Below, piece by piece: positions 16,901 to 22,900 of a stretch of 64,000 nucleotides of DNA. The stretch lies in assembly GCF_056746865.1 (NCBI RefSeq), contig NZ_CM163382.1; one strand, 5' to 3'. A program made the position numbers. Position 1 is the stretch's first letter. Every line of letters starts with the position of its first letter.

Positions 16901-19900
16901 AAAGCGAAAAATCGCTAACCGACTTCTTTGCGCCATTACTCTCTGTCCCGTCGTTGCAGATTGGTCGCCTGGAAGTCATCGACGCTCGCCTGCAAGGTCC
17001 GGACTGGGCGGTGACCGACCTCGATCTCAGCTTGCGCAACATGACCTTCAGTAAAGATGACTGGCAGACACAGGAAGGCAAACTGTCGATGAACGCTAGC
17101 GAGTTCATTTATGGTTCGCTGCATTTATTTGACCCGATTATAAACGCGGAATTTTCCCCGCAGGGCGTAGCGCTGCGCCAGTTCACCAGCCGCTGGGAAG
17201 GGGGCATGGTCAGAACGTCCGGAAACTGGCTGCGCAACGGGAAAACGTTGATCCTTGATGATGCGGCAATTGCCGGACTGGAATATACCTTGCCAAAAAA
17301 CTGGCAACAGTTGTGGATGGAAACGACACCGGGTTGGTTAAACAGCCTGCAACTGAAGAGATTTAGCGCCAGCCGCAATCTGATCATTGATATCGACCCT
17401 GACTTCCCGTGGCAGCTCACCGCGCTCGATGGTTACGGTGCCAACCTGACGCTGGTTACCGATCATAAATGGGGCGTCTGGAGTGGTTCGGCGAATCTGA
17501 ATGCCGCCGCCGCGACATTCAATCGTGTTGATGTTCGTCGCCCATCGCTGGCGCTGACCGCCAACAGCAGCACGGTGAATATCAGCGAACTGAGTGCATT
17601 TACTGAAAAAGGCATTCTGGAAGCCACCGCCAGTGTTTCACAAACGCCACAACGTCAGACCCATATCAGCCTGAATGGACGCGGTGTGCCGGTGAATATT
17701 TTGCAACAGTGGGGATGGCCTGAATTACCGTTGACTGGCGACGGCAATATTCAGCTTACCGCCAGCGGCGATATTCAGGCCAATATCCCGCTGAAACCTA
17801 CGGTTAGCGGGCAACTCCATGCCGTGAACGCCGCAAAGCAGCAAGTGACTCAAACCATGAATGCGGGCGTCGTTTCCAGTGGTGAAGTTACGTCGACGGA
17901 GCCGGTGCAGTAAAAATCAATCTCGCCGGGTACGACTCAGACGTACCCGGCATTCCGTCAATAGATTACAACGTAATTGTCAGCGCATTCCCTTGAGGCG
18001 TCACCACCAGCCCCTGCTCACTTTCAGCCTGCGAACCGCCTTGCAGACCATTTACTTTCACAACATTGCGCAAGCACAGTGTCCAGTTCTTCGCCTCGCC
18101 CGCACCAGTCACAGTAATCGTGTTACCAGTACGTGTTGCTTTTAGAGTAAAGATCACCGAACCGTCAGCAGCGGGCACTTCACAAAGAGCTTCATGCCCG
18201 TCTTGCAGATTAAAGAGATGGAATGCCGTGCCTTCGTGCCACGCGTAATCGGGACGTTGCTCGTTGTTGCCCAGCGCCAGTAGGGTGTTATCACGCACAT
18301 AAACGGGCAGACTCAGGAAGCTGTGCTGCTGTTTATGCCAGCGACTACCATCGAGTTCATCGTTGTGCCACAGATGTGTCCAGCGACCTTCCGGCAAGTA
18401 GAACTGCACATCGCCCGCTTCAGTGAACACCGGAGCAACCATCACGTTGTCGCCTAACATGTATTGACGGTCAAGGTAATCACAAGCCGGATCGTCCGGG
18501 AACTCCATCATCATGGCCCGCATCATCGGCGTACCCCGCGCGTTCGCACGAGCAGCTTCACGATACAGATACGGCATCATGCGGCATTTCAGTTGCGTGA
18601 AGAAGCGCACCACATCACAGGACTCATCATCATAGGCCCACGGCACACGATAAGATTTGCTGCCATGTAAACGGCTATGGCTGGAGAGCAAACCAAACGC
18701 GCACCAGCGTTTGTAAACGTGCGCCGGAGCGGTATTCTCAAAGCCGCCGATATCGTGGCTCCAGAAGCCAAAACCTGAAAGGCCAATAGACAAACCACCG
18801 CGCAGGCTTTCCGCCATTGATTCGTAGTTAGCGTAACAGTCGCCACCCCAGTGTACCGGGAATTTCTGCGCACCAACGGAGGCCGAGCGAGCAAACAAGA
18901 CGGCTTCTTCCTGGCCAACGGTTTCCTTGAGCACGTTCCACACCAGTTCGTTGTAGATGTACGCATAATGGTTATGCATTTTCTGCGGATCGGAACCGTC
19001 AAACCATTGAACATCGGTTGGAATACGTTCGCCAAAGTCAGTCTTAAAGCAATCAACGCCCATCGCGACCAGACCTTTCAGTTTGTCGGCGTACCATTTG
19101 CAGGCATCCGGATTGGTAAAGTCATAAATCGCCAGACCTGGCTGTAATGCCGATCAGTTAAGGATCAGTTGACCGATCCAGTGGCTGTGTAAGAATCCGG
19201 AAACGCTCACTTGTTTCCGGATTTTTTTATGCACATTGGACAGGCTCTTGATCTGGTATCCCGTTACGATTCTCTGCGTAACCCACTGACTTCTCTGGGG
19301 GATTACCTCGACCCCGAACTCATCTCTCGTTGCCTTGCCGAATCAGGTACTGTAACGCTACGCAAGCGCCGTCTTCCCCTCGAAATGATGGTCTGGTGTA
19401 TTGTTGGCATGGCGCTTGAGCGTAAAGAACCTCTTCACCAGATTGTGAATCGCCTGGACATCATGCTGCCGGGCAATCGCCCCTTCGTTGCCCCCAGTGC
19501 CGTTATTCAGGCCCGCCAGCGCCTGGGAAGTGAGGCTGTCCGCCGCGTGTTCACGAAAACAGCGCAGCTCTGGCATAACGCCACGCCGCATCCGCACTGG
19601 TGCGGCCTGACCCTGCTGGCCATCGATGGTGTGTTCTGGCGCACACCGGATACACCAGAGAACGATGCAGCCTTCCCCCGCCAGACACATGCCGGGAACC
19701 CGGCGCTCTACCCGCAGGTCAAAATGGTCTGCCAGATGGAACTGACCAGCCATCTGCTGACGGCTGCAGCCTTCGGCACGATGAAGAACAGCGAAAATGA
19801 GCTTGCTGAGCAACTTATAGAACAAACCGGCGATAACACTCTGACGTTAATGGATAAAGGTTATTACTCACTGGGACTGTTAAATGCCTGGAGCCTGGCG

Positions 19901-22900
19901 GGAGAACACCGCCACTGGATGATACCTCTCAGAAAGGGAGCGCAATATGAAGAGATCAGAAAACTGGGTAAAGGCGATCATCTGGTGAAGCTGAAAACCA
20001 GCCCGCAGGCACGAAAAAAGTGGCCGGGACTGGGAAATGAAGTGACTGCCCGCCTGCTGACCGTGACGCGCAAAGGAAAAGTCTGCCATCTGCTGACGTC
20101 GATGACGGACGCCATGCGCTTCCCCGGAGGAGAAATGGGGGATCTGTACAGTCATCGCTGGGAAATCGAACTGGGATACAGGGAGATAAAACAGACGATG
20201 CAACGGAGCAGGCTGACGCTGAGAAGTAAAAAGCCGGAGCTTGTGGAGCAAGAGCTGTGGGGTGTCTTACTGGCTTATAATCTGGTGAGATATCAGATGA
20301 TTAAAATGGCGGAACATCTGAAAGGTTACTGGCCGAATCAACTGAGTTTCTCAGAATCATGCGGAATGGTGATGAGAATGCTGATGACATTGCAGGGCGC
20401 TTCACCGGGACGTATACCGGAGCTGATGCGCGATCTTGCAAGTATGGGACAACTTGTGAAATTACCGACAAGAAGGGAAAGGGCCTTCCCGAGAGTGGTA
20501 AAGGAGAGGCCCTGGAAATACCCCACAGCCCCGAAAAAGAGCCAGTCAGTTGCTTAACTGACTGGCATTACAGACCTGGCTGCCATTTATCCCACTGCCA
20601 CAGCGAACCGTCCGGGCGTTTGAGTAAATAGCCTTTCTCTTGTAACTCTTTAAAGACAGGGGATTTTTGCCCGATATAGGGGTTAATCCAGACGCAGATT
20701 TTCAGCCCTTTCGCTTTCAGGCGGCGGATCATCCCTTCCGGGTCCGGGAAAGTCAGCGGGTCCCACTCAAAATCGCACCACTGGAAGGCTTTCATCCAGA
20801 AACAGTCAAAGTGGAAAACATGCAGTGGCAGATTGCGTTCCGCCATACCATCGATAAAGCTGTTTACCGTCGCTTCGTCGTAGTTGGTGGTAAATGAAGT
20901 GGTTAGCCACAGACCGAAGGACCACGCGGGCGGCAGCGCCGGACGACCAGTAAAACGGGTATAACGATCAAGTACCGCTTTCGGCGTCGGGCCGTCGATA
21001 ACAAAGTATTCGAGATATTCACTCTCAACGCTGAACTGCACTTTGGAGACTTTCTCCGCTCCCACTTCAAAAGAGACGCATTGAGGATGATTGACCAGTA
21101 CCCCATAACCACGGTTAGTCATATAGAACGGGATATTTTTATACGCCTGTTCAGTACTTGTGCCGCCGTCCCGGTTCCAGGTCTCTACCGTCTGGCCATT
21201 GCGCACCAGGGCAGTAAAGCGCTCACCCAGACCGTAAACTGTTTCGCCAACGCCAAGATCCAGCCGCTCAAACATATAATTTCGTTGATTATTCGTGTCC
21301 TGCACGTAGCCATTATTTTTCACCTGACTACCGGTAATACGTTCGCCGTTGCGCAGAAAATCCAGTGACCAGAACTCACCTTTGCTGACACGCGCGCTTA
21401 AGTTGCCACTTTTAAACTCAGCGTAACGTTCTGTGTTTTCGATTGTGACCTTCACGTCCTGCAAAATATTGAGCGGATAATGAGGACCGTTATTCAGCGC
21501 CCCCTGAAAATGCTCAATCCGTACACCGACAATACCTTCCTGTGGGGAGAAAAAGCGCAGCGTAAATAAAGGCGTATCAAGCTGCCAGGTTCGTTCACGC
21601 ACATCACGGGGGGCAGCATAGACCACCATTTCATTACCCTGCTGTTCAACCTCGAACACCTGAAGCGGGTGAATCAAATTGAGGCCAGGTTGAATCAACC
21701 AGTTTCCATCGCTAATTTTCATTGCCGTTCCTTAGTTCTGCACTTCTTGAGAGGTGAATTGTTGCTGGCAACGGCGTTTGCCCTGGGCCAGCTGTTCCAT
21801 AACGGTTTTCAGATTGTGCGTCGTGAGTGAGTAGTAGCGTTTAGCGATAATCGCGCTCAGCAAATAACAGATCGCCGGAACAATCGTGAATAGCGCAATA
21901 ATGATGCTAATCGTGGCGCTGTTCTGCGCTTTTTCTGCCGCATCATATCCGCCATAAGCCAGCATCCAGCCGATAAGAGCGCCGCCGAAGGCCAACCCCA
22001 GTTTGAGCACAAACAGCGTGCCAGCAAAACTGATCCCGGTCAGGCGTTTACCATTGCACCACTCGCCGTAGTCGACGGTATCGGACATCATTACCCACTG
22101 GATAGGTGTCACTAGTTGATGCAACACACCAATCACGAAGATGAAGACAAACATGGTGATGCTGGCCTGCATAGGAACAAAGAACATCGCGAGGCTAATC
22201 ACTGCCAGCAGGGCGTTCGTCCACCAGAAGATAGTGACTTTACATTTCCAGTCGGTCAGCGGTTTTGCCAGTGCGGAACCAATCAGGTTACCCACGCAAT
22301 AAGTGGTGAGAAAAGCGACAAACACTTCCGGCGTACCCAAAATCCATGTGACGTAATACATCATCGCTCCACCGCGTACGCACACCGCCAGGATATTGAA
22401 AATGGTTAGTAAACCGACAATCCGCCACTGGTCGTTTTGCCAGATATCACGTAAATCTTCCCGCATAGACGTCGTTGTAGGTGGTGCTTCAACGCGTTCT
22501 TTAGTGGTGAAGAAACAAAATGCCAGCATCATAAATGCCACCACGGAAAGGACCGCGATACCGCCCTGGAAACCGAGTGGTTTATTATCACCACCAATTA
22601 AATTAACCAGCGGCATCATCAGCACAGTAGAGAGCATGCCTCCCGCGGTCGCCAGCACAAAACGCCAGGATTGCAGCGAGATACGCTGAGTCGGGTCATT
22701 GGTGATTACACCACCCAATGCGCAGTAAGGGATATTAACGATGGTATAAAGTAAGGTAAGTAGGGTGTAAGTAATTGCTGCATAAATCATTTTTCCGTTC
22801 ATACTGAGATCTGGCGTGCTATAGGCCAGTACACAGACGATCCCAAATGGCAGTGCGCCAAACAGTACCCACGGACGAAATTTACCCCAGCGAGAGCGCG

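Follow-up and report, generated by a model that had tools for sequence, protein, structure and literature searches.

In a 64,000-nucleotide stretch of DNA (hereafter the window; NCBI RefSeq assembly GCF_056746865.1, contig NZ_CM163382.1), the alpha-xylosidase gene yicI is split by a copy of the insertion sequence IS4. We estimate at about 90% the probability that this is a canonical IS4 that entered yicI in a single ancestral event in one clone, at a preferred IS4 target site. The disruption of yicI by IS4 is itself already known, since RefSeq carries the two gene pieces as a pseudogene pair and the insertion has been mentioned in print for ST69 (sequence type 69). As a finding it is routine: the insertion sequence is a known one, and so is the sugar-hydrolase gene, which is dispensable. 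What is new is the finding that the yicI site and the terminator of bamD are natural IS4 hot spots, hit independently in several lineages.

IS4 and the split yicI gene

The element occupies positions 19145-20570 (1,426 bp) between two copies of the direct repeat CAGACCTGGCTG. An exact-string search gave two occurrences of this 12-bp sequence in the window and no more, 19133-19144 and 20571-20582. The two copies are perfect, and the bases that border them do not lengthen the match in either direction. At its ends the element carries inverted repeats, TAATGCCGATCAGTTAAG and TAATGCCAGTCAGTTAAG, which agree at 16 of 18 positions. Positions 2-5 (AATG) and 14-16 (TTA) of the element end fit the end signature of the IS4 subgroup, -AATR--------WTW---- (De Palmenaer et al., 2008; PMC2266710), and both the duplication and the element length fall inside the ranges given for this subgroup (10-13 bp and 1,400-1,650 bp, together with a Y(2)R(3)E(6)K motif; PMC2266710). 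The preliminary description of this stretch had recognized an IS4 that has inverted repeats and is flanked by an intact target duplication of 12 bp, and this identification stands, as does its position for the first repeat copy; its element length of 1,427 bp and its second copy at 20572-20583 have to be corrected to the values above.

Over its entire length the window copy is identical (1426/1426) to the IS4 of E. coli K-12 MG1655 (NC_000913.3 4502090-4503515). Its transposase is encoded by a single intact open reading frame (ORF) of 442 amino acids, from an ATG at 19229 to a stop at 20557, and is identical to InsG; its translation contains the Y(2)R(3)E(6)K motif. It scored 299.6 bits against NF033592, the model of IS4-family transposases (cutoff 115), and matched PF01609 DDE_Tnp_1 (109 bits, cutoff 23) and PF13006 Nterm_IS4 (114 bits) in Pfam. 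A search for further IS4 sequence within the 64-kb window found none. Judged from its intact ORF and two intact ends, the element is canonical and apparently still functional; the zero to six extra IS4 copies in each clonal carrier are compatible with activity and are no proof of it. The K-12 IS4 (insG, b4278) shares with it all 1,426 bp, the inverted repeats, and the 442-aa transposase, and the K-12 duplication, CAGAACCAAGAT, resembles that in yicI in being 12 bp long, in starting with CAGA, and in having A-tract and T-tract arms. However, the K-12 copy lies between yjgZ and nanX in the KpLE2 region, and the yicI site of K-12 is intact. The elements of the insertion are located as follows.

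17966-19144, minus strand: 3' fragment of yicI, residues 381-772, without a promoter of its own or a start codon at the junction
19133-19144: left copy of the target duplication CAGACCTGGCTG, encoding Gln381-Pro-Gly-Leu384 of YicI on the minus strand
19145-20570, plus strand: IS4, 100% identical to the K-12 MG1655 copy, with the transposase antisense to yicI
19145-19162, plus strand: left inverted repeat TAATGCCGATCAGTTAAG, matching the right one at 16 of 18 positions and carrying the subgroup end signature
19229-20557, plus strand: insG, the IS4 transposase gene, 442 aa, intact and equal to K-12 InsG; PGAP places the start at a TTG at 19211
20553-20570, minus strand: right inverted repeat TAATGCCAGTCAGTTAAG, whose terminal TTA gives a minus-strand TAA (20570 to 20568), the stop of the truncated yicI
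20568-21722, minus strand: 5' fragment of yicI, residues 1-384 followed by the IS4-borne TAA, comprising the mutarotase-like N-domain and the first third of the GH31 barrel
20571-20582: right copy of the target duplication CAGACCTGGCTG, an exact match to the left copy

When IS4 and one repeat copy were deleted, so that 19144 was joined to 20583, a minus-strand ORF of 772 codons resulted. Its score with NF007940, the equivalog model of alpha-xylosidase, was 1430 bits (cutoff 606), and the crystal structures of YicI (1WE5, 2F2H, and 1XSI) aligned with it over residues 1-772 (approximately 1844 bits). This bears out the earlier statements that IS4 splits yicI and that its removal restores the frame; once joined, the two flanking ORFs align to one continuous YicI. 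The rebuilt empty site was 100% identical, without a break over 1,000 bases, to the intact yicI of strain 042, and the same identity was seen in a strain named ST69 and in dozens of others. Codon 384 is the last before the insertion point, and the break divides the GH31 TIM-barrel domain (PF01055) at profile positions of approximately 118/147. Asp416 (in KTDFGE) and Asp482 (in HWGGDCY), reportedly the nucleophile and the acid/base of YicI (Lovering et al., 2005), both fall within the 3' fragment, and PGAP annotates both pieces of the gene as pseudogenes. YicI has been described as having two catalytic Asp residues (PMC5745559).

IS4 would thus have moved into yicI between codons 384 and 385, duplicating 12 bp as is usual for this element. 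The N-terminal stub would end at the TAA formed by the IS4 terminus, directly after Leu384, and both catalytic aspartates would be left in a promoterless 3' piece, so that alpha-xylosidase activity is most probably gone. Loss of function, as had been proposed at the outset, is very likely because the N-terminal 384 residues are cut off from both of these aspartates. The clone should for this reason fail to cleave alpha-xylosides (isoprimeverose derived from xyloglucan), although it should still produce the YicJ transporter.

Clonal spread and repeated insertion at the yicI site

We surveyed 5,426 complete E. coli genomes for the insertion. The 1-kb stretch around the site was uninterrupted in 5,359 of them, and yicI/IS4 junctions identical to those in the window were present in 53, of which 52 belong to one clone. 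Over 2.6 kb, 51 of the 53 carriers were 100.0% identical to the window and one was 99.9% identical, and 50 remained at 100.0% across 12 kb around the site. The carriers came from humans, ducks, chickens, wastewater, and seawater, and from countries including Mexico, Norway, Israel, Zimbabwe, and Cambodia. A single insertion took place in the ancestor of a globally spread clone and has been inherited since. IS-free relatives also exist, and across the 12-kb flanks there was no single-nucleotide polymorphism (SNP) that separated carriers from non-carriers. Because the IS-free genomes share an identical 10.5 kb of flank, the event is evolutionarily young and yet fixed in a successful clone. The word "recent", which had been applied to the insertion before, is accordingly apt in the evolutionary sense, given the perfect repeats, the identical IS4, and these relatives, but not in the sense of an event specific to one strain.

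The carrier clone is apparently ST69. An IS4-disrupted yicI was noted in ST69 in 2022 (PMC9241692), and ST69 isolates of another study match the carriers 118UI, NMBU-W13E19, and SCU-313; at least one genome named ST69 has an empty yicI site. The insertion in RefSeq entries of this clone (e.g., NZ_CP032515.1) consists of the same element with exactly the same junctions and two yicI pseudogene pieces, the element being labeled "IS4-like element IS4 family transposase". Neither RefSeq nor PMC9241692 gives the duplication, the orientation, or the independent insertions in other lineages that are reported here. Over the stretches compared, the window and strain 118UI differ at two places, an indel near 3418 and a SNP at 30808, so that the window derives from a very close relative of 118UI and not necessarily from 118UI itself. 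In the carrier MS14387 the yicI copy is the only IS4, and it may be speculated from this that the yicI copy was the founder copy of the clone.

Insertions at the same position were not confined to this clone. We modeled the junction for the opposite orientation of IS4 and searched the genomes for it, and it was found in full in five. In four of these, IS4 sits at exactly the same junction nucleotides with the same 12-bp duplication and has its transposase on the yicI strand; the four are PRO_A-1443 (Tanzania) and fS25a (Malawi), which are mutually identical, A37 from an Australian rodent source, and APEC E18055 (O2:K1:H7, Korea). The fifth, VL40, has its IS4 elsewhere in yicI, displaced by 726 nt toward the 5' end of the gene, with the 13-bp duplication GTCCTGCACGTAG; the left arm of this site fits the A-tract rule poorly. 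Furthermore, the 53rd genome with the window junctions, 14EC007 (China), has the same orientation and duplication at 98.9% identity, with 56 SNPs in 2,320 nt of flank and a 1-nt deletion in its IS4. Between lineages the flanks differ by 2-3%, with the nearest SNPs 31 nt to the right and 105-123 nt to the left of the junction, and the IS4 alleles differ by 1-16 nt and have different frameshifts. From these sequences we count no fewer than four independent insertions at one yicI position, and probably five, with both orientations represented.

It follows that yicI::IS4 alone is not a clean clonal marker, because the same junction arises independently elsewhere in either orientation; it is usable as a polymerase chain reaction (PCR) marker for the clone if the orientation and flanking SNPs are read too.

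Some carriers have further differences nearby. Relative to positions 14000-26000 of the window, the clonal carriers WP7-S17-ESBL-01, HR5-1, and HR12-1 contain approximately 1.2 kb of extra DNA, and eco-241 contains approximately 0.78 kb extra within the same 12 kb; the sizes suggest more IS insertions. The opposite-orientation lineages have a BglG-family antiterminator gene downstream of yicI on the same strand, in place of yicH. This gene is probably part of the frz operon, and polarity might matter in those strains.

Target preference and alternative explanations

A second natural site came to light as IS4 copies that lie away from yicI and align for approximately 20 nt past both element ends. 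It is the bamD-raiA intergenic terminator AAAACGGCAGCCTTGAGCTGCCGTTTTTTT (AAAACGGCAGCCTTGAGCTGCCGTTTT), in which IS4 sits inside the hairpin. Among the genomes surveyed, 336 have IS4 there in one orientation and 69 in the other (405 of 5,426), as compared with 57 genomes at the yicI site. At the bamD-raiA terminator IS4 duplicates 13 bp (CAGCCTTGAGCTG), with a 14-bp duplication in an allele that has one C more, and the two IS4 orientations share the same duplication. The elements at this terminator differ from the window IS4 at zero or one position, and they occur in both orientations as at yicI. Unlike the yicI site, the bamD site is intergenic and a real terminator hairpin, so that no gene is disrupted, and its duplications are longer (13-14 bp). 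A literature search on IS4 at the bamD-raiA site found nothing relevant.

The two sites can be aligned as AAA-TCGC-CAG-ACCTGG-CTG-CCA-TTT (yicI) and AAA-CGG-CAG-CCTTGAG-CTG-CCG-TTT (bamD). In the window, the empty-site alignment places the outer arms of the palindromic target as follows.

19126-19128: AAA arm
20586-20588: TTT arm

We further collected 19 independent IS4 left flanks, namely those of the window, of K-12, of 16 contig ends of Kosakonia oryziphila, and of one Photorhabdus locus, where the match is a diverged or shortened element; nearly everything that a scan for the IS4 left end brought up was a contig end of the Kosakonia oryziphila draft, which supplies left flanks only. Counted from the element, A was present at -20 to -16 in 10-16 of the 19 flanks, C at -14 to -12 in 11-12, G at -4 in 13, and G at -1 in 16. 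The left half of the aligned target was exact in three Kosakonia flanks. A position weight matrix built from the 17 Kosakonia and Photorhabdus half-sites was used to score every position of the IS-free window. Both yicI half-sites ranked within the top 1-2% of half-site scores, and the highest-scoring positions look like intrinsic terminators. The yicI site is the one place in the window with the pattern AAA-N3-4-CAG-N6-7-CTG-N3-4-TTT.

On balance we favor the view that IS4 is near site-specific in E. coli, its transposase recognizing a palindrome found a few times per chromosome. According to this putative recognition code, IS4 would choose the rare terminator-like palindrome AAA-N3-4-CAG-N6-7-CTG-N3-4-TTT, which the yicI sequence AAATCGCCAGACCTGGCTGCCATTT would mimic. 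If this is true, natural populations show the same few sites re-hit with single-nucleotide precision in either orientation, yicI::IS4 is a homoplastic marker, and the yicI and bamD sites make up a natural data set on target recognition. Recurrent landing on a few terminator-like palindromes in wild E. coli could help to define the target code of IS4.

Such behavior fits the site specificity of IS4 known from the laboratory for decades, and it extends a known property without being a new kind of biology. In work attributed to Klaer et al. in 1981, Mayaux et al. in 1984, and Mahillon & Chandler in 1998, IS4 is said to have reused one galT site, to have entered the pheS,T attenuator, and to favor AAA-N20-TTT. 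A text search of the literature for the IS4 consensus and for the galT and pheS,T sites found nothing. The natural sites share with that picture the reuse of single sites, both orientations, duplications of 11-13(14) bp, and A/T tracts approximately 20 bp apart around a GC-rich terminator-like palindrome. The classical sites came from laboratory selections, whereas those described here are natural chromosomal sites over thousands of wild genomes. In K-12, IS4 transposes rarely, with 8 of 758 new insertions in mutation-accumulation lines (PMC5009759).

Recurrence at yicI might instead reflect selection for loss of the gene in extra-intestinal or host-adapted lineages, not a choice of target. 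The literature offers a weak hint in this direction, because yicI is the commonest integration site of ISEcp1-blaCTX-M-14 in ST38, and the second yicI position in VL40 points the same way. Selection, however, would give varied lesions. The independent events, of which there are at least four, all fall on exactly the same 12 bp, and the intergenic bamD terminator of similar sequence is hit more often than yicI. Moreover, the site is uninterrupted in nearly all genomes (5,359/5,426, over 1 kb), and deletion of yicJI is reported to lower fitness. We regard this explanation as very unlikely. Spread of one ancestral insertion between lineages by homologous recombination, without any target preference, seems to us a little less credible still. 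A37 and APEC E18055 do share an identical left flank (1,170 nt) while differing at 10 of 1,150 nt on the right, and IS copies in one genome can be homogenized or diversified by gene conversion, which counts in favor of recombination. Nevertheless, IS4 stands in either orientation at the same nucleotides while the yicI sequence on each side is preserved, an outcome that recombination cannot yield. The closeness of lineage SNPs to the junctions (31 nt on the right, 105-123 nt on the left) and IS4 alleles that are 1 to 16 nt apart with different frameshifts also speak against it, as does the bamD terminator, which behaves alike, with two orientations and with 13- or 14-bp duplications that track the local allele.

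A recent strain-level insertion with polar or promoter effects on yicJ, as first suggested, is improbable to a still greater degree. The perfect repeats, the identity of the element to other IS4 copies, and the IS-free relatives with identical flanks would all suit a recent strain-level event, but the insertion is common to 52 clonal genomes from several continents and hosts and has been described for ST69. As for the neighboring genes, yicJ lies upstream of yicI, yicH is convergent, and no outward minus-strand promoter-like site was found in IS4. Misplacement of an IS4 copy into yicI during assembly has a negligible chance of being the explanation. Draft genomes are often misassembled at IS elements, and we found no specific evidence of such an artefact here; the target duplication is perfect, the empty site is reconstructed exactly, and an artefact is excluded because 53 independent complete genomes from many laboratories share identical junctions.

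Several observations nevertheless weigh against a single ancestral insertion of a canonical IS4 at a preferred site, or limit what can be built on it. A37 and APEC E18055, which have the identical left flank and 10 differences in the right flank, differ at 16 IS4 positions; a single insertion with later IS4 gene conversion could account for both, and the number of hits would then be four instead of five. Four of 61 genomes with an interrupted 1-kb site match neither IS4 orientation. The full yicI site ranked 289th of 62,482 positions by the weight matrix (top 0.46%) and 13th of 2,318 within yicI, which agrees with the preference without singling the site out, and because it is not first, a simple matrix is not sufficient to predict the hot spot. 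The rarity of the palindromic pattern, expected by simulation at 0.03 per 62.6 kb or approximately three per genome, is indicative only and partly circular because the pattern was written after the yicI and bamD sites had been seen. The resident IS4 site of K-12 and the second yicI site of VL40 fit the pattern only loosely. In addition, the fate of the yicJ transcript and the loss of YicI activity are predictions from the sequence.

Two observations outside E. coli were made in the course of the flank search. A 265-nt contig of Methylobacterium mesophilicum NBRC 15688 (NZ_BPQU01000128.1) contains at least 75 bases equal to the left IS4 junction of K-12 MG1655, composed of 45 nt of flank from the yjgZ-nanX region and a 30-nt IS4 end. 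This match is most likely E. coli K-12 contamination, and as a copy of the K-12 junction it was left out of the flank set. In Kosakonia oryziphila REICA_142, the 16 contigs that end in the IS4 left end are identical to E. coli IS4 over its first 30 nt; the same IS4 has accordingly expanded in this plant-associated Kosakonia and broken up the draft assembly.

Neighboring genes and other features of the window

The features that bear on transcription within and next to IS4 are the following.

19169-19196, plus strand: promoter-like TTGACC-16-(TG)AAGAAT, a match to consensus only, of putative role
19191-19226, plus strand: hairpin followed by a U run, just 5' of the transposase ATG (-24.4 kcal/mol, z -4.7)
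20541-20566, minus strand: hairpin overlapping the right inverted repeat, followed by UCUUUUU (-20.4 kcal/mol, z -4.0)
21732-23114, minus strand (23114 to 21732): yicJ, a GPH-family transporter gene, intact (NF008526, 1055 bits)

The stop codon of yicJ lies 9 nt ahead of the yicI ATG (21722), so that yicJ is the upstream gene of the operon, named yicJI in Répérant et al. (2011). On the 3' side of yicI there is only yicH, on the opposite strand and convergent. The idea of polarity on yicJ, which had been placed downstream, fails because yicJ is upstream, and no polar effect downstream is possible because convergent yicH is all that adjoins the 3' end of yicI. An outward IS4 promoter that would drive the yicI 3' fragment or an antisense transcript of yicH was also considered, and it was dropped when a search of IS4 revealed no outward minus-strand promoter-like site.

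The hairpins at the two IS4 ends fold far better than shuffled sequence (z -4.0 to -4.7). The 11-bp hairpin at 20541-20566 is similar to an intrinsic terminator, and transcripts from yicJ-yicI would reach it approximately 5-45 nt inside IS4. As an intact upstream gene, yicJ should still be made, and its transcript probably now stops at this terminator-like structure just inside the right end of the element. The left end has a mirrored arrangement on the plus strand, where the site at 19169-19196 is the probable transposase promoter, and its -10 element overlaps the 5' arm of the hairpin downstream. That hairpin looks like a terminator, or like a structure that sequesters the ribosome-binding site, for transcripts arriving from outside. 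A transcript that comes in from outside would form the structure and then either terminate or mask the start site, whereas one begun at the element's own promoter would not, by analogy with IS10 and IS50, which offer precedents for the folding of transcripts that enter from outside.

The window contains several further features. The tRNA-Sec gene selC at 23407-23501 is directly followed by a short rhuM fragment (23581-23709), the remnant of a selC-integrated island; in 14EC007 a tyrosine integrase gene adjoins selC in place of this fragment. An island absent from K-12 (27984-45274) carries genes related to type III secretion, as annotated from strain 118UI. These encode an SycD/LcrH chaperone, an SctE translocon subunit, and an IpaD/SipD-like tip protein, and the island also holds the HilA-like regulator gene eilA and a 10.2-kb gene for the inverse autotransporter adhesin air/eaeX (35018-45274). 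Near nepI, a RelE/ParE-family toxin gene overlaps a helix-turn-helix gene (46893-47553), and the two look like a small toxin-antitoxin pair. An IS200C transposase gene lies between adeD and uhpT (51561-52152), and the Hfq-binding RNA STnc490 of Rfam adjoins it on the minus strand (52029-52152, 146 bits).

Between uhpA and ilvN, where K-12 is not known to have genes, there are two hypothetical ORFs of 496 and 435 aa (57319-60371). PGAP calls just 160 aa of the 435-aa open frame, and neither ORF gave a significant match in searches of Pfam and PADLOC. Finally, the antitoxin RNA istR (62940-63069, 150 bits) lies beside tisB, and the leader gene ivbL is upstream of ilvBN, an arrangement like that of K-12.

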